From positions 1 through 60,165 of IMG/VR virus record IMGVR_UViG_3300007775_000011: DNA of 60,165 nt. One strand, 5' to 3'. Made by a program: the position numbers and the translations under genes. The notes under the pieces are model-generated. The model worked only from the letters and a program-made list of their open reading frames with translations. It did no database searches and was not told the origin of the DNA. Shown one piece after another: positions 10,798 through 60,088 of the stretch (positions within the stretch are counted from its first letter, which is position 1; every line of letters starts with the position of its first letter). The DNA is from a virus (lineage: Duplodnaviria > Caudoviricetes).

Positions 10798-10814
10798 GTA
10801 TAAAGAGATTAATT

Positions 10815-45671: not shown

Positions 45672-45750
45672 GCCCGTCTTTTACGCCAAGCCATGCCCCA
45701 CACCTGCAGCAAAAAGAGACTATGGCCGGGATGCTCGTTGTGATTATCAT
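45547..45750 (-). CDS. small zinc-finger protein
   Basis: CCRCGAWLG...SHGFCVPC. Confidence 0.6.
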   Translation of the reverse strand: MIITTSIPAIVSFCCRCGAWLGVKDGLGVSGWSHGFCVPCAEDYFNMEFGEGADDEMWIMLRQNKGR

Positions 45751-45758
45751 GTTTTATC

Positions 45759-45796
45759 CTTTAACCGTACACGGTCGGCATAATACTCTGTTAAGT
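45759..45796 (+). other. degenerate terminal attC (right arm)
   Basis: ...GGCATAATACTCT GTTAAGT; R' coincides with the stop of ORF 45791. Confidence 0.4.
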
Positions 45797-46045
45797 AGCA
45801 CGTAGTTTTCTTTCTATCTCTTCCGCACTGTCCCGTTTAAAGTCAATCCATTGGTGGTTCTCACCATTGTTACACTGCATTTCACCATCATCACCATACA
45901 ATCCACTCTTTGAGCAACCGTGATTTAACCACAGCAATTCACGCAACTTCTTCTCGCTACTTAACAAGTCGCTTGAGTTCGACGGCAAACCCGCCGGTTT
46001 GGTTGCTCTTATCAATTCTCCAGTTGCTATTTCTGTTCCTGCCAT
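45791..46045 (-). CDS. cassette ORF, hypothetical
   Basis: AAGGAGG RBS and ATG inside attC 45959-46092; LRELLWLNHGC..LYGDDGEMQC. Confidence 0.75.
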   Translation of the reverse strand: MAGTEIATGELIRATKPAGLPSNSSDLLSSEKKLRELLWLNHGCSKSGLYGDDGEMQCNNGENHQWIDFKRDSAEEIERKLRAT

Positions 46046-46092
46046 TTCATTCCTCCTTAGTTGGGTTTCCGCGTCTCAACTTGGTGTTAAAA
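45959..46092 (+). other. attC site
   Basis: ACTTAAC AAGTC GCTTGAGTTCGAC ... GCGTCTCAAC TTGGT GTTAAAA. Confidence 0.75.
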
Positions 46093-46341
46093 ACCCTCTT
46101 CATAATTGCAATAGTCGCAGGTTGCCTTACAGTTTCTTGGCAATGCCAATGTTTTCTTGCCAGATAATCTCAAAGGGTATTCCCCACAATTAGGGCATAC
46201 CAAATAAGGCTCAACCGGCTTAGTGGTTGCAATAACACGGCTTTTAACAACCGCATCAACCGGACTCGCTACCTCTGGCTTGTCTGGGCAGTTATCACAT
46301 TTTCCGGGAATTTTTACGCAATCTTCACATTCTGTTTTCAT
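46087..46341 (-). CDS. cassette ORF, zinc-ribbon protein
   Basis: CEDC..CDNC, CPNC..CDYC; stop lies in R', start lies inside the next attC. Confidence 0.7.
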   Translation of the reverse strand: MKTECEDCVKIPGKCDNCPDKPEVASPVDAVVKSRVIATTKPVEPYLVCPNCGEYPLRLSGKKTLALPRNCKATCDYCNYEEGF

Positions 46342-46374
46342 TATCTGCTCTCCTGTTATGGCAACACGTTGGTG
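46242..46374 (+). other. attC site
   Basis: TTTTAAC AACC GCATCAACCGGAC ... TCCTGTTATGG CAACAC GTTGGTG; extra base in L''. Confidence 0.75.
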
Positions 46375-46377
46375 CGC

Positions 46378-46608
46378 TTAATAACATGGATATTCACAGG
46401 CGCTCACGCAGTCATCACACCACGGCACCCCGTTACGTGGTACTTTTGCCAATTCTTTCTTGCTAACAAAAACTCCGCATTCGTGGCATTTTTCACGCTT
46501 TTGCACAGAACCAGTAAATTCAGTGGATTCGCTAACCTTGGCGTTTTGGTGGCAGTTATAAGGCGACAAGGTGCATGTGTCGTCATAAATGCAGTCTATA
46601 CATTCCAT
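46378..46608 (-). CDS. cassette ORF, Cys-rich protein
   Basis: MECIDC...CHEC...CDDC; start inside attC 46505-46637. Confidence 0.65.
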   Translation of the reverse strand: MECIDCIYDDTCTLSPYNCHQNAKVSESTEFTGSVQKREKCHECGVFVSKKELAKVPRNGVPWCDDCVSACEYPCY

Positions 46609-46637
46609 TCGCTCACCTTTGATTATGGTCGTTAGCA
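46505..46637 (+). other. attC site
   Basis: ACAGAAC CAGT AAATTCAGTGGAT ... CCTTTGATT ATGGTC GTTAGCA. Confidence 0.65.
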
Positions 46638-46853
46638 AAACGTCATACCAAGTAAAAACTGGAGCCTGTTTTCTAATTTCTCCAAATGCTCACGAGGCAC
46701 AACGCACACTGGCGTTCCATTCTCTATCTCTGCTGCTTCCTGCCACTCCGACAGGTATTTATCAGGCATCCCGCCGTGATCCATGACTATCTTCCCACCT
46801 ATTATTCTTAGCTTGTCTGGGGCAGCATCCCCAAGCTTTCTTATATTTTTCAC
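46632..46853 (-). CDS. cassette ORF, hypothetical
   Basis: GGAGG RBS then GTG at 46853; stop in R'. Confidence 0.65.
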   Translation of the reverse strand: MKNIRKLGDAAPDKLRIIGGKIVMDHGGMPDKYLSEWQEAAEIENGTPVCVVPREHLEKLENRLQFLLGMTFC

Positions 46854-46868
46854 GGCGTACCTCCTGTT

Positions 46869-46958
46869 TGCTAACCAGCGCATTAAATCGACTGGAATAA
46901 TCTTTGGTTATTAAAATCGGCCAGCCCATCGGCCAGCGGTTTATGCTAAACGTTAGCG
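46869..46958 (+). other. attC site
   Basis: TGCTAAC CAGC GCATTAAATCGACTGG ... CCAGCGGTTTATGC TAAAC GTTAGCG; closely similar to 59405-59494. Confidence 0.9.
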
Positions 46959-47222
46959 GTCCATGAATGGGCCGACAATAGTAACGTCAATAGTCCCTAA
47001 ATTCCATCCCCTTCTGTGTCGTATGCGTCTGCCAGGGGAGTAAGACAAAATATACCAAAGGTTTTGCCGTTTGATCTCAATCTTGATGCCCCACTGCATC
47101 CAGTTCGGCATTGCCTGGTTTACGGATTTACGAAGCCGATGGAATCCGCTAACCAGGCGTTGCACTCTGACCCCATGGGGCGTGGGTTCTTTGGTTGTTT
47201 GTTTATTCGGTGTTTCCATCAT
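46953..47222 (-). CDS. cassette ORF, hypothetical
   Basis: AAGGAG RBS and ATG inside attC 47147-47272; stop in R'. Confidence 0.65.
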   Translation of the reverse strand: MMETPNKQTTKEPTPHGVRVQRLVSGFHRLRKSVNQAMPNWMQWGIKIEIKRQNLWYILSYSPGRRIRHRRGWNLGTIDVTIVGPFMDR

Positions 47223-47272
47223 TTCAAATCTCCTTTGTTCACCCATGGGTCAGGTGAACTTAAACGCTCTAT
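47147..47272 (+). other. attC site (R' core mutated GTT>GCT)
   Basis: CGCTAAC CAGGC GTTGCACTCTGACCCCATGGG ... CCCATGGGTCAGGTGAAC TTAAAC GCTCTAT. Confidence 0.75.
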
Positions 47273-47431
47273 TTCCCGTCTAAATTATCCCATATATGGT
47301 CTAAAACCTTATTTCCAAGCTCTGTGTATCTAAGCCAGCCTCGCAATCCGCAGTCTCGCAAAGTCTTGTCTTTCAAAGTCTCAAATTCCTTTTGCTTGTT
47401 ATCCGGCTACCAGTTATGCCGGTCGTTATCT
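47269..47431 (-). pseudogene. truncated cassette: ORF remnant plus attC right half
   Basis: open frame ...LRGWLRYTELGNKVLDHIWDNLDGK* without a clear start; CAGTTATGC CGGTC GTTATCT without a left arm. Confidence 0.5.
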
Positions 47432-47629
47432 TCGACAACCTTTCATGCCAATAACGACTTCAAATTTTTCATGGCAGTTTTCACATTCCACAGTAAAACA
47501 TCCATTGTGTTTCTTGGGCTTCTTGTATCTCGCCCACGTTTCACACTTTTTGCACTGTCTGGGCAATCCTTTCAAAAACCGTTCACATCCAGGCTGAGAA
47601 ATTTCATCAATAAAATCTAAATTTTCCAT
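47426..47629 (-). CDS. cassette ORF, zinc-ribbon protein
   Basis: MENLDF...CKKC...CENC; stop in R'; could start at 47677 inside the attC. Confidence 0.65.
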   Translation of the reverse strand: MENLDFIDEISQPGCERFLKGLPRQCKKCETWARYKKPKKHNGCFTVECENCHEKFEVVIGMKGCRR

Positions 47630-47632
47630 GTC

Positions 47633-47718
47633 AGATAACCATCGCATTAACGCAGACTGGAAGAAAGCTGGCGGCATTGGCTCGTTCAAGGCCCAGCAGC
47701 TCAACAAAAACGTTATAT
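47633..47718 (+). other. attC site
   Basis: AGATAAC CATC GCATTAACGCAGACTGG ... CCAGCAGCTCAAC AAAAAC GTTATAT. Confidence 0.7.
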
Positions 47719-47733
47719 TGCTAAATAAAAATG

Positions 47734-47847
47734 TTGCCATGAAGGGAGTTGAACCCTCATCTGCCACCAGAAAAATCATACAGAATCGAACTGTATCAGC
47801 TTCCCCACCTTTCATGGGGAGGTGTCTGCCAATTTCACCACATGGCA
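47734..47847 (-). ncRNA. tRNA-like RNA occupying a whole cassette
   Basis: acceptor stem TGCCATG/CATGGCA, Leu-type D arm GTGAAATTGGCAGACAC, T arm GAGGGTTCAACTCCCTT; non-canonical anticodon loop and an extra TTCGATT hairpin. Confidence 0.7.
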
Positions 47848-47976
47848 ACATAACAAAAAAATAAAGCGGATTGCTAAAACCGTGGCGGATTTAAGTTATT
47901 GGCTGTGGCGCTACATTTCGGTAACGTCCAAGTTTTATACTAGCAATCCGCAACAGCTTATTATAGGTTGTTATCT
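47848..47976 (+). other. attC site (long, VCR-like layout)
   Basis: ACATAAC AAAA AAATAAAGCGGATTGCTA ... CAGCTTATT ATAGGTT GTTATCT. Confidence 0.75.
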
Positions 47977-48147
47977 TTCCCGTTCACGCATGGCATCCAA
48001 GGCCATGTTTATTAAGCGGGAAATTCCTTTACCTTTTTGCGCCCTGATCCACCTGTTATTAATCCGGCTTATCCTTGCGCCTATTCGTACATGGTCGGTT
48101 GTAGGGCCAACCTTTCGGCCAGCCCCTTTTCTTGCACCGCCTCTCAT
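47971..48147 (-). CDS. small DNA-binding protein (RGG motif + ribbon-helix-helix-like; not in ORF track)
   Basis: MRGGARKGAGRK...VRIGARIS...ISRLINMALD, 58 aa; stop in R'. Confidence 0.75.
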   Translation of the reverse strand: MRGGARKGAGRKVGPTTDHVRIGARISRINNRWIRAQKGKGISRLINMALDAMRERER

Positions 48148-48359
48148 ATGTATTTACCTGTTACAGGAGATACAACATACAAACCGCTTTCACTGTGCAA
48201 ATCATCTTTGATGCTACATATCCCTTCAGCCTCCAAAGTCTCAAAGGCAGCAAATAACTGTTTCTGCCCGGTGTGTATATTAAAACATCTCCCGTTATCC
48301 ATAGCCAAAGAGTTACATATCATCCTCACTGCTTCTATTTGCGCTTGTGCCTTTTTCAT
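48144..48359 (-). CDS. cassette ORF, hypothetical
   Basis: GGAGG RBS; first gene after the cassette promoter; ATGA-coupled to the next gene. Confidence 0.7.
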   Translation of the reverse strand: MKKAQAQIEAVRMICNSLAMDNGRCFNIHTGQKQLFAAFETLEAEGICSIKDDLHSESGLYVVSPVTGKYI

Positions 48360-48373
48360 GGTGTATCCTCCGT

Positions 48374-48429
48374 TTGGCTTTATTGCCCTTTGTTAAATAC
48401 AGAATATCATCATTTTTGATTTTTGTCTA
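48374..48429 (-). promoter_or_regulatory. cassette-borne promoter plus conserved leader
   Basis: TAGACA-17 nt-TATTCT with TGn extension; leader AACAAAGGGCAATAAAGCCAA repeated at 60089-60112. Confidence 0.7.
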
Positions 48430-48463
48430 CCTTTTTTCAATAAATAATTAAAATAAAGTAAAA

Positions 48464-48529
48464 AGATAACAAATAAATTAACGACGACAGGAAACCTGCG
48501 GTTTATCAGCCCTCATTATTGCCGTTATA
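48464..48529 (+). other. attC site (right boundary of array A)
   Basis: AGATAAC AAAT AAATTAACGACGACAGG AAA CCTGCGGTTTAT ... GTTATAT. Confidence 0.6.
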
Positions 48530-48606
48530 TTTTTAAGCTATTCCATCAATGTGGGTTATTGTTTCAACCCACCGGACAGGTATATCACCGGCCCATTCCT
48601 TGTCAT

Positions 48607-50055
48607 TCATCGAATAAAATTATTTGAACAAATAGGACAAGTCCAAATATTTTTCTTTTTATTATGGTACATCCATTCATTTCCGCAATTACAAGGATGA
48701 AAATGAACTTCATCTTTTTCATACCAACTTTTTCCAGCTGGAGAAAATTCTGTTTCAGCGTCAAGTGGTACGATTAACCACGGCCATACTTCACGAATAT
48801 CATGGCACATTATTTTATCAGTAACTTTCATTACATGATTTATTTCAGAGGGCTCAAAATCAAAAACAATAGCATCATGAATCTGTCCTAAGATCTTTGT
48901 TTCCCATTTCTCTTCTATAGATATTTTTTGAATATGAATCAAAGACCAAAGAAGACAATGAAAAGCTGATCCCTGTACAGCATAATTGATAGCTTCATTC
49001 CGGGACATTACTCCCTGATATCTAAAACCTGTAAAACTATCAAAATATCCATTTTCTTGATAGGATTCTACATGATCATTTTTCCATTGATTATAAACTG
49101 GATAGCGGTCTTCCCAAAATTTTCTTTCAACTTTTTGTATATGCTTTTCAAATTTTTTATAGGATCGGATACCGTGTTTTGCTAAATGTTTTTTTAATGG
49201 AACCCCATCTGCTGTTTTAAGATTTAACTGTTCTATTCCTACCCAAAGAGCTTGGGCGCAATTAACATAATAATCACCGTAAAATTGAGGAAAGACAAAC
49301 TTATTTTTACCGCAATATCTTGCATCTTTTGTCCACTCATCCATTTCTAATTTATAGCATTCCATTGCCATATCTCGGTGCATATCTCTTTCCGGGTCGG
49401 TAATATCCTCTATCATAGTGGGATCACGATGATAACAAGCGGCAACTTTTACTTCTATGCCGCCATAATCTTTTTCCCCAAATACTCTTTTATCTGTTCT
49501 TGGTAAAAAAGCTTTTCTTACCATACTTTTTACCCAAGGGATTCTAACCGGGATATTTTGGAAATTAATATTAGATGATGATGAACGAAAAGTGACTACA
49601 GTATGTAAATTAAAAAATGGGTAAAGAAAACCATCAACCTGTTCTCTGAGTATTCCTCCAAGATAGGTACCTTGGATTTTTTCCATTTTTCTTCTTTCTA
49701 ATAATAAATTAAGCCATTCCATATTAAGAGCTTGTAAACTTTCTTCATCAGTGGAACCTTGATCACCGCCAGTTTGTTTTTTTGCTTTTAATTTTAAATG
49801 ATCATAAAGAAGTTCGGATAATTGTTCATTGGAATTATATTTGAATTTACTGCCATATAACTCTTTCCATTTCTGTACTTCTTTATACTCACTTAATTTG
49901 ATTTCAGCTTTTTTGATTTTTTTTGTTAATCTTCGATCTTGTAAATGGCAATGATCTAAATCAATTTTCATTCCATTCAACTGGATCTGAGAAAGAGCCA
50001 ATGCCCCTTCATGAAGCAGCTGATATCCTTTGATGTCAACAGGAGTTATTTGCAT
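48607..50055 (-). CDS. polA: family A DNA polymerase, polymerase domain
   Basis: TFRSSS.NINFQNIP, DYGGIE (motif A), R..GK...F..FYG (motif B), NYAVQGSA, QIHD (motif C). Confidence 0.92.
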   Translation of the reverse strand: MQITPVDIKGYQLLHEGALALSQIQLNGMKIDLDHCHLQDRRLTKKIKKAEIKLSEYKEVQKWKELYGSKFKYNSNEQLSELLYDHLKLKAKKQTGGDQGSTDEESLQALNMEWLNLLLERRKMEKIQGTYLGGILREQVDGFLYPFFNLHTVVTFRSSSSNINFQNIPVRIPWVKSMVRKAFLPRTDKRVFGEKDYGGIEVKVAACYHRDPTMIEDITDPERDMHRDMAMECYKLEMDEWTKDARYCGKNKFVFPQFYGDYYVNCAQALWVGIEQLNLKTADGVPLKKHLAKHGIRSYKKFEKHIQKVERKFWEDRYPVYNQWKNDHVESYQENGYFDSFTGFRYQGVMSRNEAINYAVQGSAFHCLLWSLIHIQKISIEEKWETKILGQIHDAIVFDFEPSEINHVMKVTDKIMCHDIREVWPWLIVPLDAETEFSPAGKSWYEKDEVHFHPCNCGNEWMYHNKKKNIWTCPICSNNFIR

Positions 50056-51281
50056 ATATCAATTCCCAATTTTTTACGTTTTTCCCATTGAACTTCAGCC
50101 AACCGATATTCCAATAAAGAATCCAGAGCATTTCTTTTTAGAACATCTTTCATATTAGCTTCATAAATTCTATTAAAAGAATTAGCGTGCTTTTCCGTCC
50201 CTTTTAAAAATTCCCCGGTTGCGTCTTTAAAATCCATTATTCCAAAATTAACAATACTTTGAAATTCAAGATCATTACACCCACGGCGATTATCTAATGT
50301 ATGAGATCCATACATTGTATCCCATAACCAACCTTCTGGGATTATATTCATAATATGTCTAGTCCACATATCTTCAAATTTCATGTGATGGGCTATTTTT
50401 TTAATATTTGGATTTTTAAGAATCCGGCCCCAAATCCTTTCAACATTTATATCATCAAAAGGAAAGGCAAAAGCATTATCCCTATCAGTTGCTATACTTA
50501 AAGTGACAATATGGTGTCCTTTTGCAATAGGACGTAGACCAGTTGTTTCATAATCAAAAGCAATAGGATTTATAAACCCTCTATTTATTTCTTCCAATTT
50601 GGGCAGTATTTGTTTAGGAGATGTTAAAATTTCAATACAACTTTCAGGGTCTTTCCATTCCGGGAAATCATCTTGGTAATGATCAATAGCATTTTTGAGA
50701 TCCATCTCAAATATAGTTTCAATAACCTGATTCCCGTGCGCGGCTTTTTTTACATAAGCTGGGTGGTACATTGGGAATATCCAACATTTATGATCTTGGT
50801 CAGGTATTTGCCAACCCCTCCAAGAATAAATCCCGGTACCCACAGAAACACGATGGCCGAAACAACTATCAATAGCGATATTACCCAATAAAAATATGGC
50901 CTTTGGTTTGTATTTTTTAATGACTTTTAAAATCCGGTTTCGACAAGCTTGGATTTCTTTTGGTTTTGGATTTCTACTATCAGGTGGGTGACAATTAACG
51001 CTATTGATTTTTATACAATCTCTATCTATATCAATCTTGTTTCTTTTTAATAATCTGCGGAGATATAGACCTGGTTTACCAACTAATTGTTTTCCAAGTT
51101 TATCTTCTTTTTCTCCCGGAGCCTCAGCCCAGATTAATATTTCTTTTTTACCTTCTCCGTGAGGTTTCATTTTCGGAGATTTACAAGACCGATATAGACC
51201 GCAGGAGGCGCATCCAATAGTTTTACCGGATGCCCCCCTGTTTATTCCAACAATTTCGTCTTTACTAAAAAAGCCGGACAT
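50046..51281 (-). CDS. family-4 uracil-DNA glycosylase domain fused to a 3'-5' exonuclease domain (N-terminal part of a split SPO1-type polymerase)
   Basis: CASC..C, EAPG..ED, CHPP..R.P, YHPAY; then DYETTGL, HHMKFE, DTM, NALD. Confidence 0.88.
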   Translation of the reverse strand: MSGFFSKDEIVGINRGASGKTIGCASCGLYRSCKSPKMKPHGEGKKEILIWAEAPGEKEDKLGKQLVGKPGLYLRRLLKRNKIDIDRDCIKINSVNCHPPDSRNPKPKEIQACRNRILKVIKKYKPKAIFLLGNIAIDSCFGHRVSVGTGIYSWRGWQIPDQDHKCWIFPMYHPAYVKKAAHGNQVIETIFEMDLKNAIDHYQDDFPEWKDPESCIEILTSPKQILPKLEEINRGFINPIAFDYETTGLRPIAKGHHIVTLSIATDRDNAFAFPFDDINVERIWGRILKNPNIKKIAHHMKFEDMWTRHIMNIIPEGWLWDTMYGSHTLDNRRGCNDLEFQSIVNFGIMDFKDATGEFLKGTEKHANSFNRIYEANMKDVLKRNALDSLLEYRLAEVQWEKRKKLGIDICK

Positions 51282-52315
51282 CAGTTTTCCTTTGCCATAG
51301 CTACAACGTGTTTGAAGTTATCCTTTTCAAATAATATTGATTTATCTCCAATAATCGCAGTACGAAACATTTTAAGAATTTGGATAAAATTTGAAGGGTT
51401 AATTTTAAAAGTACATTCCCCGGCTTTGGATTTCATTTTAAGGGACTTTTTAAACCACCCATTATCCCCTTTCCCTTCCACTGTTAACTTTTTCTTGTTA
51501 ACAGAAACTATCAATGAATTATTATCTGCCATAATAGTTGCATTATTTATAGCAGATATCAAATCTTTGGGAAATTCAATTTCATCTCCATCTACTTTAA
51601 AAAAACTGGAAATATCTGGATATTTCCCATCGTGCGTTCTACAGCTAAAAATGGTGCCTAAGCGGTTTTTAAAATGGGCCCATCCTTCGGTATGGGAAAT
51701 CTTTACAGGCTTATAAGAAGCTAAATGACGAGCTGAGGAAGCTGGTAAAAGATACCCTTCACTATCAGCTCCTGTTTCTGTGTCCCAAATAGTAGCACGG
51801 GAATTATCACAAGATTGAATAAAATCAGGCTTTACATATAAACATGTAAAAATTGGTTGGGAAGCATCGCCGGAAGCAGAGAAAATACAACTGTTTATAG
51901 CGGTAATAAAATTATCAGGATTAGGGATTTTCTTAAACTTTTTGGGTTGTGACATTTCTTCGATAGGCAAACGAATTTCTTGTTCAAGTCTGATCCCGGC
52001 TTCCCCATCCGATTCTGTAGAGATAGTTAATTCAGAATTATCAATTTCCAGTTCAATTTCTTCGCAAGAAAAACTTTTTAAAATACTGAAAAACTCTCTT
52101 GCTTGAACTGCTGCCTTCATATCTAAAGAACCATCCCCAACAAGTGGGTGTTGTATGGCTATTTCATCATTAAAAGTCATAGCCATATCTTCATTAAATA
52201 CAAAACAGGAAGCTTGCTCAACAAGACTATTTTCAGAAGCAATCCCCGGCTGAAGTATTTGTAAAATATCCAATAATTCTTTTCTATTAATTTTCATTGC
52301 TCCTTCTCCTTGCAT
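51281..52315 (-). CDS. dnaN: DNA polymerase sliding clamp (beta-like)
   Basis: KINRKELL, CDNSR, GKYPD; size. Confidence 0.8.
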   Translation of the reverse strand: MQGEGAMKINRKELLDILQILQPGIASENSLVEQASCFVFNEDMAMTFNDEIAIQHPLVGDGSLDMKAAVQAREFFSILKSFSCEEIELEIDNSELTISTESDGEAGIRLEQEIRLPIEEMSQPKKFKKIPNPDNFITAINSCIFSASGDASQPIFTCLYVKPDFIQSCDNSRATIWDTETGADSEGYLLPASSARHLASYKPVKISHTEGWAHFKNRLGTIFSCRTHDGKYPDISSFFKVDGDEIEFPKDLISAINNATIMADNNSLIVSVNKKKLTVEGKGDNGWFKKSLKMKSKAGECTFKINPSNFIQILKMFRTAIIGDKSILFEKDNFKHVVAMAKEN

Positions 52316-52322
52316 TAAATTA

Positions 52323-53144: not shown

Positions 53145-53179
53145 AACTTGATCCCCCCATTTTTATTAAAGCGGTTTCC

Positions 53180-53365
53180 TTAAATATAAACAATTAATTC
53201 TTGTTCCATTTGCTTTAATAAATTTTTTGCTATTCTTTTCCGCTTATTATTTTTGCAATATTCTTCCATTGCGTCTATAATAATTTTAGATTCTTTGGTG
53301 GAAGCAAAAATAATAGAATCCCCCGTTTCTGTTCCTTTTCCATTATATAATAGAGCGATTTTCAT
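53180..53365 (-). CDS. hypothetical protein
   Basis: 61 aa, ATGA-coupled. Confidence 0.55.
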   Translation of the reverse strand: MKIALLYNGKGTETGDSIIFASTKESKIIIDAMEEYCKNNKRKRIAKNLLKQMEQELIVYI

Positions 53366-53589
53366 AATGTTATTTTTTCAAGTTTTATTTTAGAGGGTTT
53401 TCTTGATTGAGGAGTAAAATCTAATTCTTGTATCATTTCGGCTTGTCCCTTACTTAAAAAAGTAAGAGCCTCAGAACGTTGTCCCCAAGTCCATTTACCA
53501 TCTTTAACAGTGAGGAATTTTTTCCAGTTTCTTTTTTTAGATTTAGGTATAGAAACGATTAAGAATATTTCTATTTCCATTTGATTCAT
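53362..53589 (-). CDS. hypothetical protein
   Basis: 75 aa, GGGGG RBS. Confidence 0.55.
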   Translation of the reverse strand: MNQMEIEIFLIVSIPKSKKRNWKKFLTVKDGKWTWGQRSEALTFLSKGQAEMIQELDFTPQSRKPSKIKLEKITL

Positions 53590-53630
53590 CCCCCGGTTTT
53601 GGTTTAATTACTTATTTTCAACTTTTAGGG

Positions 53631-53684
53631 ATTGGAGGGGGAATTGAACCCCCCAACAGCGTCCTACCCTTTCCTAAGCCCAAT
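53631..53684 (-). ncRNA. tRNA-like minihelix (acceptor stem + T arm only)
   Basis: ATTGGG...GGGGG TTCAATT CCCCC TCCAAT. Confidence 0.4.
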
Positions 53685-53876
53685 ACATAAAAACCAAAAA
53701 TAAATAATTAATAAAGGGGTGGGACTAGAATGGGAGAGCCAGCCCCACCCCTTTAAAGTCCTACATAAAGGCGTAATTTTATAAAATATTATAAATTATT
53801 GTTTTAATCTAATCCATAAACAAACCACCTCCTTCTTCCGGGCCAACTATCCGGGATCGGCTACTTGGTTTATTAA

Positions 53877-54125
53877 TTAGTATTTCCTTATTTTATTTTT
53901 GGGATCGAAAGCTTTGGCAAAAAAAGCTTTTAATTCACCATATCCATTACCAAATATTTTATCCCAAAACTGAGAATAATAATATATATTTCCATCATCT
54001 TCCTCCCAAGACAAAATTCCTTTTAAATCTCCATCTTTACAAATTTTAAATTCAATTTTAGAACAGGAGGCATTGTGTTGTTTAAGTGTATTTTTTAAAA
54101 GCTTTTCAATCTTTTTTAAATTCAT
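53877..54125 (-). CDS. hypothetical protein
   Basis: GGGAG RBS before MNLKKIEK. Confidence 0.55.
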   Translation of the reverse strand: MNLKKIEKLLKNTLKQHNASCSKIEFKICKDGDLKGILSWEEDDGNIYYYSQFWDKIFGNGYGELKAFFAKAFDPKNKIRKY

Positions 54126-54309
54126 TTTCTTTCTCCCTTTCTTTTTGTTCTTGGACAAATTTTGTAAAGAAAGATTTTTCAATAGCTTCAAATTCATCAG
54201 AAGTTAAATTAATATTGCGTTTAAAAAATAACCCTTCCCGGTCTTTAAAATCCAATTGAATAGTTCTGCGATCATTTTTATATACTGTAGGAAGTTTAGC
54301 AATAATCAT
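54106..54309 (-). CDS. hypothetical protein
   Basis: 67 aa, abuts the upstream glycosyltransferase. Confidence 0.5.
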   Translation of the reverse strand: MIIAKLPTVYKNDRRTIQLDFKDREGLFFKRNINLTSDEFEAIEKSFFTKFVQEQKEREKENEFKKD

Positions 54310-54310
54310 A

Positions 54311-55456
54311 TTATTTTCTTTTGATAAGTTTCATTCCATATTCATCATTGCTTTTTATTGGGGTAATATCAGGTTTTAAAATTGGTTTATTACGTTTAAA
54401 TTTTGAATAATCAACTTGATGGTGCCAACGATTAAATTTAAAAACTATATCAACAACATCAGGATGTTGTTTTTGGAGACTTTTAGCAAATGATTTTCGA
54501 TAATCATTTGTATTGTATACATTATCTGTATTTCCACCTTTTAAGGCTCCTTTAGTTTTTCCACCGTCAAATGTTTTTCCTTTATTCATTAAAAGGACAT
54601 AGAATAATAAAGTACAATATCCATCTTTTAATAATCTGAGACTGAGATCAGTATCTTCATTATATCTTCCCCGCCATCTATGCGGCAGATCAGTCTTTAA
54701 AAGAATACAAGAATAAATTCTGGAATTGAATAAATAAGGAGGGTGATTGGGAGATCGGTCACGGACGAAACCTTGATCATGTGGTCCGGCCATTACTATA
54801 TTTTCATATCTGTCAACAAAATCTTCCATAGCCCGAAAGAAACCACCCCCGGTCACTTTTAATCTTCGGTTATGATTACACCTTGTAAATGTAGTTATAT
54901 TGTCATCAACAGTCCAATGACGTTTAAATCCTCTTTTTTTACACCATTCCCATATATAATTTCGTGCCGGCACTGATCCTCTTCCAAGATCATGAAAAGG
55001 CATAACAACTACTTTATTTTTTCCAAGGTGTTTTATATATTCTTCAGCTTCGGTTTCTTCAACAAAAAATTTATAAGAAACCCCAAGTTGATCCAGTAGT
55101 TTTCCTGTAGTTTGGACATCGGCCCTTCCTTTACTCGGTATACAAACTGGATATTTAGAATCTTCAGGTGGGCCCGTATATTCAAATTTATTTTTTTCAA
55201 GTGGTTTTTGTCCAGGGTACCACGCAGAATCAGTTCTTTTATTAATTCTAATTCCTAATTTTTCGGCAAATTCTTTTACATCTTCTTCAGTCATAAAATT
55301 CATAACTATTCTGCGTTGTGGAGATGCATCTTTCATAACAAATTCAGGCATTCCCCACCACATATCTTTCCAATGTGGCTCGAATAATCCAAAATCAATA
55401 GATTCTTTTTCACGGGTAGGTCGATTTTCGTTTAATTCTTTTTCAAAATTATCCAT
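54311..55456 (-). CDS. TAGT/GREB1-like GT-A glycosyltransferase
   Basis: WWGMPEF N-terminal domain; YPVCIPSKGR, ARNYIW, WTVDDN, WRGRYNEDTDLSLRLL, GGNT, RWHHQVDY. Confidence 0.8.
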   Translation of the reverse strand: MDNFEKELNENRPTREKESIDFGLFEPHWKDMWWGMPEFVMKDASPQRRIVMNFMTEEDVKEFAEKLGIRINKRTDSAWYPGQKPLEKNKFEYTGPPEDSKYPVCIPSKGRADVQTTGKLLDQLGVSYKFFVEETEAEEYIKHLGKNKVVVMPFHDLGRGSVPARNYIWEWCKKRGFKRHWTVDDNITTFTRCNHNRRLKVTGGGFFRAMEDFVDRYENIVMAGPHDQGFVRDRSPNHPPYLFNSRIYSCILLKTDLPHRWRGRYNEDTDLSLRLLKDGYCTLLFYVLLMNKGKTFDGGKTKGALKGGNTDNVYNTNDYRKSFAKSLQKQHPDVVDIVFKFNRWHHQVDYSKFKRNKPILKPDITPIKSNDEYGMKLIKRK

Positions 55457-55468
55457 ATTAATACCTGT

Positions 55469-55536
55469 TTTAATTATTTTTATTTTTTAAATAAACAACT
55501 TGTTTCGACTCTATTTAAAAAATAAAAATAATTAAA
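55469..55536. repeat. perfect 25-bp A/T-only inverted repeat, 18-nt spacer
   Basis: TTTAATTATTTTTATTTTTTAAATA / TATTTAAAAAATAAAAATAATTAAA. Confidence 0.85.
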
Positions 55537-55548
55537 GGGGCGAGTACT

Positions 55549-55587
55549 AAAAAGTTTTAAATCCCTCTTAAATTTAAAAACAAGGGG
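55549..55587 (-). repeat. conserved intergenic motif, copy 4
   Basis: reverse complement CCCCTTGTTTTTAAATTTAAGAGGGATTTAAAACTTTTT, preceded by a GGGGATATA/TATATCCCC hairpin. Confidence 0.85.
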
Positions 55588-55630
55588 GATATACCGTTTG
55601 ATATATCCCCCATTTCGATCCGGGTATATA

Positions 55631-56179
55631 TTATTTCCCGGATGCCTGTTTTCTCAGAACGGCATAGATGGCGTTGCCGATAACACGGTATGACTTTTCA
55701 GGGAATTTTTCCTTAACTTCAAGAACAACATCATCTTCGTGTCTGTCCCCAAGACCGTCTTTCAGGGTTTCCTGCAGAAAAGTTGCCATCCCTTCTTTCT
55801 TTTTGCCGGCACCTTTCTTTTTGGAACCGGATTTTTTAGCCTTGCTCTTATCTTTCGGAGCGGCCTTTTTTTCTTCTTCCTCTTTGGCCCCTTCTTCATT
55901 GACCTTGGGACCAATTTCAAGTTCTTCAAAAAGAGCCCAGGTTTCATCGGTCAGCGGATCACTTTCAGCAACATCAGCGTCTGCGATTTCGATAATTTCC
56001 GCTTTCAGTTCTTCGATGTCGGAATCGGTATCAAGAGGTGGTTCAAGACCGATAACATCATTCAGATCTTCGGCGGCGGCGATCAGGCGTTTATCCATAC
56101 TGGGGCCTTTTTTCTTGGCCGGGGCTTTTTTCTTGCCGGTGGTATTTTTCGTTGTTTTTCCTGTTGCTTTCTTTGCCAT
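55631..56179 (-). CDS. Lys-rich/acidic hypothetical protein (histone H1-like tracts)
   Basis: MAKKATGKTTK..KKAPAKKK; AAGGAG RBS; own promoter. Confidence 0.75.
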   Translation of the reverse strand: MAKKATGKTTKNTTGKKKAPAKKKGPSMDKRLIAAAEDLNDVIGLEPPLDTDSDIEELKAEIIEIADADVAESDPLTDETWALFEELEIGPKVNEEGAKEEEEKKAAPKDKSKAKKSGSKKKGAGKKKEGMATFLQETLKDGLGDRHEDDVVLEVKEKFPEKSYRVIGNAIYAVLRKQASGK

Positions 56180-56245
56180 GGTAATTCTCCTTTGTTTTGG
56201 TTTGTTTATGGCTTTTGGTTAAGTACTGTATTGATCTTGTAAAAC

Positions 56246-56274
56246 ATCATATTCTATTTTTAACACTAAGTAAA
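56246..56274 (-). promoter_or_regulatory. sigma70-type promoter
   Basis: TTTACT-17 nt-TATGAT with a T-rich UP tract, same design as 4650-4678. Confidence 0.65.
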
Positions 56275-56312
56275 GAAAAAAAAGAGATAAAAAAGAAAAA
56301 AATTAATTTTTA

Positions 56313-57860
56313 TTAAAAATAGCTTCCCAAATAAGGTCTGCCGGTTTCTAAAGATTGCAAAACTTTAATCTCCAAAGATTGATCAAATTCACCTTCCCTA
56401 CCCAATAAAGGTGACATTCTCATTATTTTATCTTTCTTTTCTTTTGCTGTTTGGTTTAAAGCATAAGCAGCAGTCACGTGATCCCACTTTCTTCCGGATT
56501 CACTAAAGTTTTTAGTTCTTAATTTTCTTGTTTCTAATCCATCTGAATCTGCCTGGGTAGCGGTAATGAAACATAAATTATATTTTAAACTGATTTGCCG
56601 CACTGCTTTCCAAACCTCATTAATTTTATGTCTCATATCAATTCGATTATCAGACCATTCAAGTAAATCAATATAATCCAAAACCAATACTTTCGGAATC
56701 CATCCTCTATTTGCCCATATTTCTAAAATAGATATTAATTCATTAATTCTCAAAGAAGGTCGGGCAACTACACGAAAATCATTAGACCCGGAAAATTTGC
56801 TCATCCATTTCAATCCAGCTCTATAGCCTTCACGCCAAGTCAAAGGTTCCACCTTTTCTCTGATTTTATACCAGACTGCTCCTTTAAATTTTTGAGGATT
56901 CCTTTTTAAACAATATGTACAGGGGACATATCCTAATTCGGTTGCATCTTCAAATGAAATTTTCGCAGGCGGTTCATCTTCTTTTTCCGGCTCTTCATAT
57001 AGTCCAAAATCGCAAGTTCTTTTTTTTATACTACAAGAATCGGTTTGATTATGAAGACAATCTATTATTGGTATTTTAATTTCACCACAATATCTTTGGT
57101 CATAGCTTTTTTGGCATAATCTTACATGAAGTCTTCTGACCTGCTGTTCCTCACTTAAATCTCCGATTTGAAATAAGGCAACTCTATTACGAAAACGATG
57201 AGCCCGGAAAGCTAACTCATCAAGCCACCACGTTTTACCTCTTTTTGCCGGGGCTAAAAAAGAAATGAAAGTTCCTTCTGAAAATTGATTATTAAAAAGA
57301 ACGTCTAAAGCTCCTGGATATGTGAAAAGAGGGTCTTGGAACGTCTCAAAAGCAGTTCTGATTTTATCAGCATTAGTAAAAGGATTGAAACCCAAATCTT
57401 CATGAAGTTCTATAGATCGGTAATTTTCAAGAACTTCTTGTGCATGTAACGGCTCATCATCATGTAAAGCTTGGCTGGCTTCTCTAATTGTTATTTTTAT
57501 TCTTCTTTCGTCTAGATAAGCTCTTGATTGTTTTAAATAATATTCAAAGTCATATTCTTTTTCTTTTTCATATTGGTTACTCAAAGAATCCATAAGATCA
57601 GCCATATCATCGGCCAAATCTTCATCAATATCATCTTTTCTTACTTTTTGATCATATATCTCTTGGAGTAGTTTCCCCGGAGCTTTCCCAAATTCTTCAT
57701 GGTATTCTAAAATCCAATTACATAATAATTTACTTACATCAGCTTGGAATAAATCAAGATTTAATTCAGGATATATGGACTTCAGAAAGGGGGTGCTAAT
57801 AGCCAACCCAATTAATAAATTCCTTTCTGAAGAAACTTTTATTTTTCTTTTGCGTATCAT
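56313..57860 (-). CDS. dnaB: replicative DnaB-like helicase
   Basis: APAKRGKT Walker A, VLDYIDLL, ITATQA, FSES..K; Cys-rich insertion. Confidence 0.82.
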   Translation of the reverse strand: MIRKRKIKVSSERNLLIGLAISTPFLKSIYPELNLDLFQADVSKLLCNWILEYHEEFGKAPGKLLQEIYDQKVRKDDIDEDLADDMADLMDSLSNQYEKEKEYDFEYYLKQSRAYLDERRIKITIREASQALHDDEPLHAQEVLENYRSIELHEDLGFNPFTNADKIRTAFETFQDPLFTYPGALDVLFNNQFSEGTFISFLAPAKRGKTWWLDELAFRAHRFRNRVALFQIGDLSEEQQVRRLHVRLCQKSYDQRYCGEIKIPIIDCLHNQTDSCSIKKRTCDFGLYEEPEKEDEPPAKISFEDATELGYVPCTYCLKRNPQKFKGAVWYKIREKVEPLTWREGYRAGLKWMSKFSGSNDFRVVARPSLRINELISILEIWANRGWIPKVLVLDYIDLLEWSDNRIDMRHKINEVWKAVRQISLKYNLCFITATQADSDGLETRKLRTKNFSESGRKWDHVTAAYALNQTAKEKKDKIMRMSPLLGREGEFDQSLEIKVLQSLETGRPYLGSYF

Positions 57861-57887
57861 AGAACGGTACCAATCAGATGCAAGAGT
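57855..57887 (-). repeat. 33-bp exact copy of terL 6197-6229 (inverted)
   Basis: ACTCTTGCATCTGATTGGTACCGTTCTATGATA at both loci. Confidence 0.9.
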
Positions 57888-57935
57888 TTATGCCGCGCAT
57901 TCATTGGCGCGGTCTGGTTATAATCGGCGTTATAT
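57859..57935 (+). other. attC site (left arm atypical)
   Basis: GCCGCGC...GCGCGGTCTGGTTAT AATCGGC GTTATAT; left arm is the terL-identical segment. Confidence 0.55.
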
Positions 57936-57937
57936 TG

Positions 57938-58153
57938 CTAGTTATTGAAAACTATCAATTCCACCGGCACATTACGCACAGACCCATCGGGCATCTCTAC
58001 AACCGCAGTAGTAAAGTTCCCCGGGCCATTCTCAAACTCTTCATAGTTAACCCCAAACTGGTGAAACACCCCATTTCCTACAGCAACCTTATCAAAGTGT
58101 GTTTGGCCCTTTACCCTTTGCCACTCATAAACAACAACTTTCCTAGTTTCCAT
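57938..58153 (-). CDS. cassette ORF, conserved-looking phage hypothetical protein
   Basis: G.FHQFGVNYEEFENGPGNFTTAVVEMPDG. Confidence 0.8.
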   Translation of the reverse strand: METRKVVVYEWQRVKGQTHFDKVAVGNGVFHQFGVNYEEFENGPGNFTTAVVEMPDGSVRNVPVELIVFNN

Positions 58154-58167
58154 ATATTAGCCCCCCA

Positions 58168-58261
58168 AGATAACAATTAAATTCACGCAGACGGCGCGAA
58201 CGTGGGCGGCACTATCCGTGTATTTCTTCGGTGGTGCCGCTGATGATTATGTGCGTTATGC
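58168..58261 (+). other. attC site
   Basis: AGATAAC AATT AAATTCACGCAGACGGC ... GCCGCTGATGATT ATGTGC GTTATGC. Confidence 0.8.
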
Positions 58262-58480
58262 GTACGAATAACTTGATCCGAACTCTTCTTTATATCCACA
58301 CGAACAAACACCAAACTTGTCTACTCTGTATATCTCTCCAAATGGGCCACTGTCTAATGTTTTTCTACCAAATATTTTTACTTTATGTCCCAAGTATTGA
58401 GCGTGATAGTCGAGTGTACTCATAACACCACGGTTAACTTGACAAGAAGAGGCTTGTGTCTTTTTTGTTGTTTCTTTCAT
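58256..58480 (-). CDS. cassette ORF, hypothetical (H...CSC motif)
   Basis: start inside attC 58420-58507; stop in R'. Confidence 0.7.
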   Translation of the reverse strand: MKETTKKTQASSCQVNRGVMSTLDYHAQYLGHKVKIFGRKTLDSGPFGEIYRVDKFGVCSCGYKEEFGSSYSYA

Positions 58481-58507
58481 GGCTTACAAGTTACCTCCAC
58501 GTTATGT
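58420..58507 (+). other. attC site
   Basis: TCATAAC ACCAC GGTTAACTTGAC ... CAAGTTACC TCCAC GTTATGT. Confidence 0.85.
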
Positions 58508-58831
58508 TCTCAACTTGCGACGGTATTCATCCATCCCAATACGTCGCAAATTTGAGTAATCATTGTCAAGCAAAGCCCATGCGAAGAAAACACCGTAGGT
58601 AATCATGGCAACGGTACGCAAATACTCCCCCGGGCCAATTACTAGCCAACAAACAACCACTAATATTATAGACGGCAAACCGAACAGCAAACAGAATCGG
58701 GTGATATCGTTGTACCAAAACCAAATCCAAAAAGAATCATAACCAGTCGCTTCACTTGACCCCAAGGGGTCGGCGTTCTGCGCTTTGTCAAATCCTGTTT
58801 CTGGGTCTAAATCAAACGGGCTATTATTCAT
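58502..58831 (-). CDS. cassette ORF, two-TM membrane protein
   Basis: GGAGG RBS and ATG inside attC 58737-58871; two hydrophobic helices. Confidence 0.75.
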   Translation of the reverse strand: MNNSPFDLDPETGFDKAQNADPLGSSEATGYDSFWIWFWYNDITRFCLLFGLPSIILVVVCWLVIGPGEYLRTVAMITYGVFFAWALLDNDYSNLRRIGMDEYRRKLRT

Positions 58832-58871
58832 TTTGTCCTCCCCTTGGGTCAAGTGACCTCAATCGTTATCT
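58737..58871 (+). other. attC site
   Basis: TCATAAC CAGTC GCTTCACTTGACCCCAAGGGG ... CCCCTTGGGTCAAGTGACC TCAATC GTTATCT. Confidence 0.88.
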
Positions 58872-59123
58872 TGCCGACCATGTTAAAAAGCTTTTATATG
58901 CCATCCCAGCCCAAAACATATACAACGGAAGCCATGTTTTATTTTCAACTGCTGCTCCTATAAAATAGGCAGGCATCCAAACAGTAGCACAAACAAAAAA
59001 GGCTATTAGCATCCTCCACTTCTTGACAAAGATAACCAGTCGCTTAACAGCTGACCGCAAGAACTGGTGCGGTTTTTGTTCCTCTTCTGCTATCGTTACC
59101 GTCTGTTCATGGTCGTATTTCAT
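58866..59123 (-). CDS. cassette ORF, two-TM membrane protein
   Basis: AAGGAG RBS and ATG inside attC 59030-59168; stop in R'. Confidence 0.75.
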   Translation of the reverse strand: MKYDHEQTVTIAEEEQKPHQFLRSAVKRLVIFVKKWRMLIAFFVCATVWMPAYFIGAAVENKTWLPLYMFWAGMAYKSFLTWSAR

Positions 59124-59168
59124 TGGTTTCTCCTTCTTGCGGCAGGTTAGCTTATTAAAACGGTGGGT
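59030..59168 (+). other. attC site (R' degenerate)
   Basis: AGATAAC CAGTC GCTTAACAGCTGACCGCAAGAA ... TTCTTGCGGCAGGTTAGC TTATTAAAAC GGTGGGT. Confidence 0.65.
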
Positions 59169-59180
59169 TGCTCAAGTATC

Positions 59181-59387
59181 TTAAGTAATGGCTCCGTTTA
59201 CATCTATGTTTGTAACGTCAGCAAGAACTCCCTCAAGCCATCTAATATTGTCATGCCATGCCTCAGTAAAAGTTATTTTTCCGGTATCAATATCTTCCTG
59301 GTGCATAAACTCAAATCCACAGATGTTTTCATACTTCTGCATGCACTGACGCTGTTTACTGTTTATTTTCTTTGCGTATACAGCCAT
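59181..59387 (-). CDS. cassette ORF, hypothetical
   Basis: AGGAGG RBS 7 nt before MAVYAKK. Confidence 0.75.
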   Translation of the reverse strand: MAVYAKKINSKQRQCMQKYENICGFEFMHQEDIDTGKITFTEAWHDNIRWLEGVLADVTNIDVNGAIT

Positions 59388-59404
59388 TCGCATACCTCCT
59401 TGCA

Positions 59405-59494
59405 ACCCAACCAGCGCATTAAAGCCGACTGGAATAAAGTTTGTTTATTAAAATCTGCCAGCACGGGGCCAGCGGTTTATGCTTAACGTTAGTT
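59405..59494 (+). other. attC site
   Basis: ACCCAAC CAGC GCATTAAAGCCGACTGG ... CCAGCGGTTTATGC TTAAC GTTAGTT. Confidence 0.9.
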
Positions 59495-59497
59495 TAC

Positions 59498-59635
59498 TTA
59501 GTGCGTATTAACCACACTCTTGATATCTATACTATGCAATCTACTTTCCTTTAGTGCCAAATTAATAGCCTCGAAAAATTCCATCATCATTTTGCTTTCC
59601 CATACTTCACCATTATAAAAAGTAACTTTCCACAT
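59498..59635 (-). CDS. cassette ORF (45 aa; not in ORF track)
   Basis: GAGG RBS; MWKVTFYNGEVWESKMMMEFFEAINLALKESRLHSIDIKSVVNTH. Confidence 0.65.
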   Translation of the reverse strand: MWKVTFYNGEVWESKMMMEFFEAINLALKESRLHSIDIKSVVNTH

Positions 59636-59649
59636 AAATTTACCTCGTA

Positions 59650-59734
59650 AACTAATAATAAAATTAATCTGACTAGAAGAAGTTTGGGTTGCAAGCGCAG
59701 TCTGGTGGCTGGAAGCTTATTATCGGCGTTATCT
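59650..59734 (+). other. attC site (R'' AAC>AAT)
   Basis: AACTAAT AATA AAATTAATCTGACTAG ... CTGGAAGCTTATT ATCGGC GTTATCT. Confidence 0.65.
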
Positions 59735-59893
59735 TTCAGTAGCTTCAACCTTGCAGCCCTTTAAGACTATTCGGAAAAGGTCTGGCTTATTCTTTGCCCA
59801 GTTCCCCAAGGTCTGCAAGCTCTGTCCGGTCAACCGTGCAACCACAGAGAGGCTTTTCAGTCCCTCCGCTTTTGCCTGTTGTGATGGGGTCAT
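59729..59893 (-). CDS. small HTH DNA-binding protein
   Basis: MTPSQQAKAEGLKSLSVVARLTGQSLQTLGNWAKNKPDLF; stop in R'. Confidence 0.75.
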   Translation of the reverse strand: MTPSQQAKAEGLKSLSVVARLTGQSLQTLGNWAKNKPDLFRIVLKGCKVEATER

Positions 59894-59894
59894 T

Positions 59895-60068
59895 TTAGTC
59901 ATCTTCTCCGGCAACATACTCTCCGTCCATGTCATAGATAGCAACGCTTCCAGTATGGTCACAATTGTTGTCAAACTGGGTTATAGCAAAATCAAGAGCT
60001 TCTTCTGCTGTCTCGCATCCTGTGATTGTCATTGAGCTGTTTCCGCATATTGCTTTATATTCTTTCAT
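59895..60068 (-). CDS. small acidic protein (57 aa; not in ORF track)
   Basis: AAGGAG RBS; MKEYKAICGNSSMTITGCETAEEALDFA...GEDD. Confidence 0.7.
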   Translation of the reverse strand: MKEYKAICGNSSMTITGCETAEEALDFAITQFDNNCDHTGSVAIYDMDGEYVAGEDD

Positions 60069-60088
60069 TGTTCTTCTCCTTAGTTTGG

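Follow-up and report, generated by a model that had tools for sequence, protein, structure and literature searches.

Stop codons of small genes coincide with the R' cut site in two probable inverted cassette arrays of a tailed phage

Results

Two clusters of small genes in a phage genome end most of their genes exactly where an integron integrase is predicted to cut. The genome is IMG/VR virus record IMGVR_UViG_3300007775_000011, a linear sequence of 60165 bases estimated to be 87% complete; the whole record was analysed and is called the window below. All 16 open reading frames (ORFs) of the two clusters lie on the minus strand, and they are interspersed with plus-strand sites that resemble attC, the recombination site of integron cassettes. 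The stop codon of ten of these ORFs is the TTA that directly follows the G of the GTT core of an R' box, i.e. it occupies the first three bases behind the predicted cut G/TT (the slash marks the cut). This coincidence is a real and statistically strong feature. We read the clusters, with a probability of about 0.6, as cassette arrays of the CALIN type (clusters of attC sites without an integron integrase), in which the genes are inverted relative to attC, their stop codons have settled onto the R' cut site, and the cassettes have been shuffled by the integrase of a host. The clusters are termed arrays A and B, and their candidate cassettes are labelled cA1 to cA7 and cB1 to cB7 (Table 1).

Stop codons at the cassette boundaries

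The ten stops listed in the initial annotation (at 45791, 46087, 46632, 46953, 47426, 47971, 58256, 58502, 58866 and 59729) all read G followed by TTA on the plus strand, so that the coding minus strand has TAA and then C; at seven of the ten the motif extends to TAACG. The statement that the other boundary ORFs stop within about 20 nucleotides (nt) of the site was also correct, as the four of them end 8, 9, 9 and 18 nt inside their cassettes. The TAAC ending is found in 10 of the 16 minus-strand ORFs of both clusters and in 10 of the 14 ORFs that adjoin a cassette boundary.

A comparison of TAAC at cassette and backbone stops had been proposed as a check, and its outcome is clear: 10/16 in the clusters against 2/69 for the ORFs elsewhere in the window, which were taken from a greedy ORF call. 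The ending is similarly infrequent in 16 loci of phages related through their family A DNA polymerase, PolA (13 of 284 ORFs), and among homologues of the 84-amino-acid (aa) protein of cA1 (2 of 56). Fisher's test gives P of about 1e-7 to 1e-9 on tallies of 2/58 and 14/284, and the final tallies of 2/69 and 13/284 are at least as extreme. C is the next base at 10 of 13 TAA stops, against a C content of 0.176 on this strand (binomial P = 5e-6).

Twelve cassettes begin with TTA; ten of them have the ORF stop there, and the other two stop 8 and 9 nt inside. The two cassettes that begin with TTG or GTG have no TAA on offer, and their ORFs stop 9 and 18 nt inside.

Models of attC and orientation of the sites

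Sites were located with two covariance models. For the first, R1, the IntI1 protein of plasmid R100 was used to collect 80 genome loci with IntI1-like genes, where terminal complementarity and folding selected 79 hairpin candidates upstream of the integrase gene. Typical cores were present in 35 candidates, and removal of five (four misaligned, one near-duplicate) left 30 attC sites for a model with an R box of 7 bp, a spacer of 5 nt and an L box of 3+6 bp with one bulge. The strand calls of R1 are reliable: 24/24 and 101/102 bacterial attC matches lie on the strand expected from the integrase gene, and on a viral contig with a true integron integrase (L039) all five matches point away from the integrase gene, with forward ORFs.

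In the window, searched on both strands with filters off and E up to 10, R1 gave ten matches, of which six lie within the clusters, all six on the plus strand. The best are 46869–46958 (26.9 bits, E 3.8e-4), 58420–58507 (24.8 bits, E 1.1e-3) and 58737–58871 (17.8 bits, E 0.048), and the four matches outside the clusters are AT-rich palindromes of 17–22 nt. Application of R1 to 64 other viral loci revealed arrays of matches in five contigs, each of which had entered the set because it encodes a homologue of the 84-aa cA1 protein nearby. The second model, R2, was built from 15 of these matches in other viral contigs, none of them from the window. It yielded 16 matches in the window, of which 13 fall inside a cluster or at its edge; all 13 lie on the plus strand, and eight have E < 0.02. 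The element at 58420–58507 scores 25.1 bits with R2 on the plus strand and 5.8 bits on the minus strand. On 57.6 kb of other phage loci, which served as a negative control, R2 gave two matches at E up to 1.

The aligned sites show the layout expected of attC: the R box measures 7 bp, the spacers 5 and 6 nt, and the L box carries one bulged base in its 5' arm. The L''/L' stem, the extra-helical base and the spacers can be seen at 46869–46958, 58420–58507, 58737–58871 and 58168–58261; the weaker sites fit this layout less well. Both terminal cores, AAC of R'' and GTT of R', are present in 13 of 14 sites; the site at 47147–47266 is without R', and one site reads GGT for GTT. The base asymmetry of real attC sites is reproduced as well: of 16 boundaries, 13 have a C before the core (GTT, or GGT at 59162), and of 14 R'' boxes, 13 have A or C after AAC. 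A CALIN is defined by two or more attC sites on the same strand, spaced by less than 4 kb, in the absence of intI (PMC4889954). Each of the two arrays contains at least four sites with E < 0.02, all on the plus strand, and no intI match accompanies them. Since the attC matches are all on the plus strand and the ORFs all on the minus strand, the genes are inverted relative to attC, and in this orientation the TTA of G/TTA acts as their stop codon. The interpretation of GTTA at the stops as part of R', put forward in the initial annotation, is borne out by every cluster match of both models.

Half-site matching and anatomy of the cassettes

When an integron cassette is excised as a circle, its first six bases come to adjoin the R'' box of its own attC, to which they are for this reason complementary. 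For the cassettes of the window, own pairs are complementary at 36 of 40 variable positions, partners in situ at 20 of 36, and unrelated pairs at about two of four (permutation P = 6e-5); six cassettes match their own R'' at 7/7 bases. This shows that matching half-sites flank each cargo and that neighbours have been exchanged.

A cassette extends from the TT of one G/TT to the G of the next. No ORF out of 16 contains a G/TT boundary, and ten stop on the first three bases behind one, so the proposal that the inverted gene fills the cassette up to the crossover point holds. The R'' box lies inside seven of the 16 ORFs, in three differing reading phases. Because no ORF crosses G/TT and seven contain R'', only the plus-strand model gives self-contained cassettes. 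On the minus strand, such a cassette comprises in this order the rest of attC, a ribosome-binding site, a complete ORF and its stop. The genes begin at or within attC, and the attC loop of seven cassettes accommodates the ribosome-binding site and ATG as well as the first ~18 to 32 codons. The clusters hold no forward ORF (0/16), against 46 of 50 forward cassettes in the bacterial control.

An attC of 87–90 nt is present once in each array (46869–46958 and 59405–59494), with similarity from the AAC of R'' to the GTTAG of R'. At the right end of cB4, the R' core (59162–59168) reads GGT, not GTT, while the four bases behind it have kept their match to R'' of the cassette that follows. It looks like a dead site, which would lock the two cassettes together.

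Leader and possible expression of the arrays

A 36-nt leader, 92% identical between its two copies, precedes the first minus-strand gene of each array (48374–48409 in cA7, 60089–60124 in cB7), and a promoter-like site is located on the minus strand just upstream of the cA7 leader (48429–48401). Both cA7 and cB7, the last cassettes of their arrays, carry two ORFs. The leader is all that cA7 and cB7 have in common, as their downstream proteins are unrelated. The last cassette, with its leader and promoter-like site, would probably transcribe the whole array leftwards. Exact-pattern scans for the 87-nt repeat and for the 36-nt leader found neither in viral contigs or genome contigs.

The same arrangement in other viral contigs

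Matches of attC on the strand opposite to the ORFs were found in three further viral contigs: L078 (estimated 100% complete), L047 and L058 (its record has terminal repeats). An integron integrase is absent from the L078 and L058 records. ORFs of 76–250 aa that stop exactly on the TTA of G/TTA number four in L078 (three found by script, a fourth by reading), two in L047 and one in L058, and the complementarity of cassette starts to their own R'' is observed in all three contigs. At L047 312–1532, an SSB gene (72.6 bits) and a PAPS-reductase-like gene both end on the R' of an opposite-strand attC.

Forward arrays, with stops in or after R'', are present in L061 and L039. The integron integrase of L039 is full-length (1121–2128; record G005 9945–10868, on a contig of 104987 bases estimated to be 89% complete) and scores 329.8 bits against a cut-off of 265; it adjoins a forward array of at least five attC matches. 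In the bacterial arrays beside IntI1-like genes, 50 distinct cassettes comprise 46 forward, three inverted and one empty cassette. Forward ORFs stop in the TAAC of R'' in 10 of the 46, and none of the three inverted ORFs stops at offset 0.

A compaction model for the stop codons

The coincidence could arise as follows. The cassette half of R', i.e. TTA and three further bases, would read in reverse as a last sense codon followed by TAA. This TAA would be the last place where the ORF of a mobile cassette can stop independently of its neighbour, and as recombination holds the GTT core constant, the TAA presumably cannot decay. In a compact phage genome, ORFs may have settled onto the TAA of the site, so that two functions overlap. 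Because R' and R'' are complementary, the inverted stop mirrors the usual forward stop in the TAAC of R''. The cassettes that begin with GTTG or behind GGT, with stops 9 and 18 nt inside, behave as expected if the site merely supplies a convenient TAA. As to the origin of the arrays, a host integron integrase probably inserted the cassettes into phage DNA at a GTT secondary site and shuffled them there. The hexamer TTATAT follows the last attC of array A and also begins cB1, the opening cassette of array B, which would fit insertion at similar GTT secondary sites.

Several observations weigh against this reading of the clusters. The window sites score 10–36 bits, against 24–74 (23.8–74.2) bits for bacterial attC sites; the R1 scores of the three best sites (17.8–26.9 bits) lie at the lower end of that range or beneath it, five sites stay below 13 bits, and in cassette cB6 neither model detects an attC. 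As R2 descends from R1 matches, the two models are not independent. Fold z-scores of five sites are −0.37, +0.72, −2.09, −0.80 and −0.63, of which the first two belong to the 87-nt pair and are no better than those of shuffled sequences, and folding alone, applied to eight junctions, did not clearly support attC. The complementarity test is symmetric in orientation, so that it does not tell which half-site is cut. No match to the integron integrase model TIGR02249 was found in the record, itself an estimated 87% of a genome; a tyrosine recombinase is likewise missing from the Pfam tables of the 20 large ORFs, although no search was aimed at the general family. The promoter is a consensus match only. 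Finally, compaction is a putative cause, which the data do not separate from the founding-event explanation considered next.

That alternative was advanced in the initial annotation. Phage genes that natively end in TAA-C would present GTTA on the opposite strand as a secondary site, to be used by an integrase at the first formation or insertion of a cassette, and the coincidence would then record the founding event of the cassette, not a later compaction. Integrases are reported to insert at short GWT sites and to spare essential genes (bioRxiv 10.1101/2022.09.11.507474), and a cut just past a stop codon would be harmless. In L047, the end of the SSB gene, which is one of the core genes of phages, coincides exactly with R' of the outermost attC. 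The cA1 protein ends three residues past its conserved core, while in 51 of the 56 loci with homologues the matched stretch continues into at least eight more residues (in the other five the stop lies within the matched stretch, which gives no reading). The suggested comparison with non-cassette homologues gave a divided answer: TAAC ends only 2 of 56 members of the cA1 family, which speaks against a native origin of the motif, and three of seven non-cassette homologues of the cB3 protein, which speaks slightly for it. The last sense codon matches the R'' of the same cassette, and four ORFs end in AGA-TAA, so the ends look imposed by the site and not inherited from unrelated genes; the R'' arm of seven sites is contained in an ORF, which argues that attC was not simply added beside a finished gene. 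The structural part of the original interpretation, an inverted gene filled up to G/TT, is upheld. Its conclusion about cassette genesis is not shown by the data, which compaction explains at least as well, and we hold a founding-event footprint to be rather unlikely. A simpler variant, in which a solo attC was inserted at a stop codon, was rejected: GTT stands just left of R'' at only one of seven sites, and the seven R'' arms inside ORFs are again unaccounted for.

It is less probable still that the orientation has been misread and that the cassettes are ordinary forward ones on the minus strand, with the stop in the familiar TAAC of R''. Sites of attC are near-palindromic, the complementarity test suits both orientations, and bacterial forward cassettes do stop in this TAAC, in 10 of 46 ORFs as given above. 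The strand calls oppose this (13/13 cluster matches on the plus strand, and 25.1 against 5.8 bits for a single element), and they come from models that are correct for 101/102 bacterial sites and for 5/5 beside a viral integron integrase. In addition, G follows TAAC at seven of the ten stops, against none of the R'' boxes in the 30-site training alignment, and a boundary at that end would cut seven of 16 ORFs in three reading phases. Canonical minus-strand cassettes with an R'' stop had been our initial view of the clusters, which the strand calls of both models and the integrity of the ORFs led us to reject.

A protein from a public collection, P0070 (80 aa), bears on the same question. It has only its first 26–29 residues in common with the 109-aa cB3 protein, the remainder being unrelated, and the common residues are exactly the part encoded inside attC 58737–58871. 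The alignments of the cB3 protein with its other homologues start at about residue 27. One attC-borne leader has therefore been joined to two different bodies. The simplest reading of this is an exchange at R'' and not at R', which counts against the preferred reading and would come naturally if the cut lay at the R'' end. The locus that encodes P0070 was not found in the viral contigs. We can also imagine, without giving it much credence, that phages keep an 'antisense' class of cassettes for expression from the attC bottom strand, where the loop would supply the ribosome-binding site, start and leader, R' would supply the stop, and new ORF bodies would be joined in frame between them. If so, the leader common to P0070 and cB3 would be a trace of the process, and phage arrays would be a place to observe cassette genesis.

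Least probable of all is a likeness to attC that arose by convergence, the hairpins being RNA elements (terminators or translational-coupling stems) or modules of the PeSL type (promoter and stem-loop) known from phage T4: terminator-like minus-strand stems do occur at several sites, one of them a strong hairpin with a T-run, the 5' arm in cB2 and cB3 covers the upstream stop and the downstream ribosome-binding site as coupling hairpins do, and the record has no detected integrase, but a generic hairpin would not give an R box, spacer and bulged L box, conserved letters at AAC and GTT, and scores on one strand, nor would it explain half-site matching that is specific to the cargo. Promoter-like sites are moreover not enriched (9 versus 7.6 expected and 6 versus 5.1, from shuffled sequence), and IntI1 recombines phage attC sites of this kind (PMC9892861).

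Features of the arrays and of the phage record

Table 1. Candidate cassettes and associated features of the two arrays. ORFs are on the minus strand and attC-like sites on the plus strand; bit scores are from models R1 and R2; "at first base" means that the stop codon occupies the first three bases of the cassette.
Feature	Position	ORF and stop	attC-like site	Remarks
Array A	45791–48524	minus strand	plus strand	about nine cassettes of 258–554 nt, between a backbone gene (45547–45750) and the end of PolA (48607)
cA1	45791–46086	45791–46045, 84 aa; at first base	45959–46092, R2 20.2 bits	R'' ACTTAAC complements own start at 4/4; protein family in 56 viral contigs
cA2	46087–46368	46087–46341, 84 aa, Cys-rich; at first base	46242–46374, R2 12.6 bits	own R'' TTTTAAC matches at 4/4
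cA3	46369–46631	46378–46608, 76 aa; 9 nt inside	46505–46637, weak, R2 11.4 bits	boundary GTTGGTG offers no TAA; least secure cassette
cA4	46632–46952	46632–46853, 73 aa, GTG start after AGGAGG; at first base	46869–46958, R1 26.9 bits, R2 31.9 bits	16/16 model pairs formed, bulged base in L''; own R'' matches at 4/4
cA5	46953–47266	46953–47246, 97 aa, no homologue by word search; at first base	47147–47266, without R', R2 18.6 bits	aligns to R2 model positions 7–59 only; R'' CGCTAAC at 47147 matches own start at 4/4
Spacer	47267–47425		no model match	159 nt between the truncated cA5 attC and the boundary G/TTATCT at 47425; contains a short hairpin; fold of 47395–47432, z −3.21
cA6	47426–47712	47426–47629, 67 aa; at first base	47633–47718, weak, R2 5.8 bits	R'' AGATAAC identical to the complement of own cassette start
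cA6b	47713–47970	no convincing ORF	47848–47976, R2 18.5 bits, fold z −2.09	attC is a long hairpin then a T-run on the minus strand
cA7	47971–48524	47971–48147, at first base; 48144–48359	48464–48530, R2 15.6 bits	own R'' AGATAAC matches at 4/4
attC-like site	57859–57935		weak, R2 11.5 bits	left edge of array B, overlaps the start of the DnaB-like gene; status uncertain
Array B	57930–60124	minus strand	plus strand	at least seven cassettes, to the record end
cB1	57930–58255	57938–58153, 71 aa, phrog_11000; TAG 8 nt inside	58168–58261, R2 20.8 bits	
cB2	58256–58501	58256–58480, 74 aa; at first base	58420–58507, R1 24.8 bits, R2 25.1 bits	attC contains the ribosome-binding site, ATG and first ~18 codons of the ORF
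cB3	58502–58865	58502–58831, 109 aa, membrane protein; at first base	58737–58871, R1 17.8 bits, R2 35.6 bits (E 3.9e-7)	30-nt inverted repeat; protein has 55 homologues
cB4	58866–59162	58866–59123, 85 aa; at first base	59030–59168, R2 10.1 bits	own R'' AGATAAC matches at 4/4
cB5	59163–59488	59181–59387, 68 aa; 18 nt inside	59405–59494, copy of cA4 attC, R2 20.5 bits	start GTGGGT offers no TAA; R'' ACCCAAC matches start at 4/4 variable positions
cB6	59489–59728	59498–59635, 45 aa, AT-rich; 9 nt inside	none by either model	
cB7	59729–60124	59729–59893, 54 aa, at first base; 59895–60068		cut by the record end; 54-aa ORF has a weak regulator match (phrog_409, E 5e-4)

Pfam and PHROGs searches with the 16 small ORFs and an overlapping 131-aa ORF gave phrog_11000 and otherwise weak matches to phrog_409 and phrog_28969, and four Pfam matches far below the cut-off. 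The loci that encode homologues of the cB3 protein contain no arrays. The ORF-less cassette cA6b has a tRNA-like look in the part before its attC (47713–47847), a candidate that was rejected, as ARAGORN and Rfam gave no match in 47700–47850.

Judging by its gene content, the record is a myovirus-type tailed phage, of lytic type. The plus strand encodes terminase, portal, head protease, major head protein, tail sheath, tape measure, baseplate wedge and tail spike. The minus strand carries a replication and recombination module with primase, SNF2 helicase, SbcCD-like and RecA-like proteins, clamp loader and family A polymerase, and further with a UDG-exonuclease, a sliding clamp, a TET-associated glycosyltransferase and a DnaB-like protein. 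The two small-ORF clusters lie within the replication and early region and, taken together, have a GC content of 0.429, against 0.368 for the backbone. Among the PolA relatives (16 phage loci, 41–49% identity), the longer loci show PolA followed directly by an ORF of about 310 aa, which by size and position is taken to be the clamp loader. As PolA adjoins this ORF directly, array A is an insertion relative to those phages. The closest PolA relatives reach only 49% identity in viral contigs and 53% in metagenome contigs, and a blastn search of both clusters against cultured phages gave zero matches.

The glycosyltransferase (PF20691, E 5e-40; 54311–55456, within the replication module) hints that the phage may carry modified cytosines. 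Between this gene and the next ORF lies a perfect inverted repeat made of A and T only, 25 nt long with an 18-nt spacer (55469–55536). The left end of the record, close to the genes for primase and SNF2 helicase, also encodes a pentapeptide-repeat protein and a DUF932 protein (3071–3544 and 3604–4587).

Comparison with known systems

Three viral contigs that are unrelated show this layout as well, with SSB among the genes concerned. The R' stop is a clean sequence signature of a true cassette boundary in phage arrays, and it is a reason to check the orientation of genes in phage and bacterial CALINs, for which annotation pipelines default to forward. The arrays also offer a small testable system for the question of whether cassettes are shaped by compaction or by how they are made, and they add to the evidence for cassette exchange between phages and bacterial integrons.

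Cassettes are almost always described as promoterless and co-oriented with attC, and how genes acquire an attC is an open question. The stop codon of canonical cassettes lies in the inverse core R'' (RYYYAAC). The likeness to the window is that the stop is the TAA of an R-box TAAC, as in 10 of 46 bacterial forward cassettes and in L061 and L039; the difference is that the window uses R', the half-site that is cut, on the other strand and in 10 of 14 boundary ORFs.

Toxin-antitoxin cassettes are often inverted relative to their array. In sedentary chromosomal integrons they carry their own promoter (PMC13108822). They are single and scattered in forward arrays, unlike the cassettes of the window, which are all inverted and seem to be served, as a whole array, by one promoter cassette at the far end.

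Modules of the PeSL type consist of a promoter and a stem-loop that are exchanged by homologous recombination, and they are not known to have R and L boxes or a GTT core. Those of T4-type phages resemble the clusters in having small early ORFs in variable regions with repeated regulatory stem-loops between them (PMC2839356). An early promoter at each junction, which would mark such modules, is not seen in the window, where promoter-like sites do not exceed the shuffled expectation.

Insertion of cassettes at genomic secondary sites (attG), of the short GWT type, has been described in bacterial genomes and would explain arrays outside an integron platform; the published case concerns E. coli chromosomes and forward cassettes (bioRxiv 10.1101/2022.09.11.507474), and insertion into a phage is our extension of it.

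The closest precedent is that of Qi et al. (2023), who described clusters of attC without integrase in virulent phages and recombined such sites with IntI1 at G/TTRRRY (PMC9892861). These phage CALINs are like the present arrays in having attC sites and small cassettes in tailed-phage genomes without intI, and differ in being described as oriented 'as in bacteria', with one phage that has divergent sites. In the literature searched, there is no report of wholly inverted arrays, of R' stops or of ORF starts inside attC; the supplementary tables of Qi et al., which lay outside the search, may bear on this. Clusters of attC in virulent phages are already known, and wholly inverted arrays with their stop codons in R' appear to be new in the literature searched.

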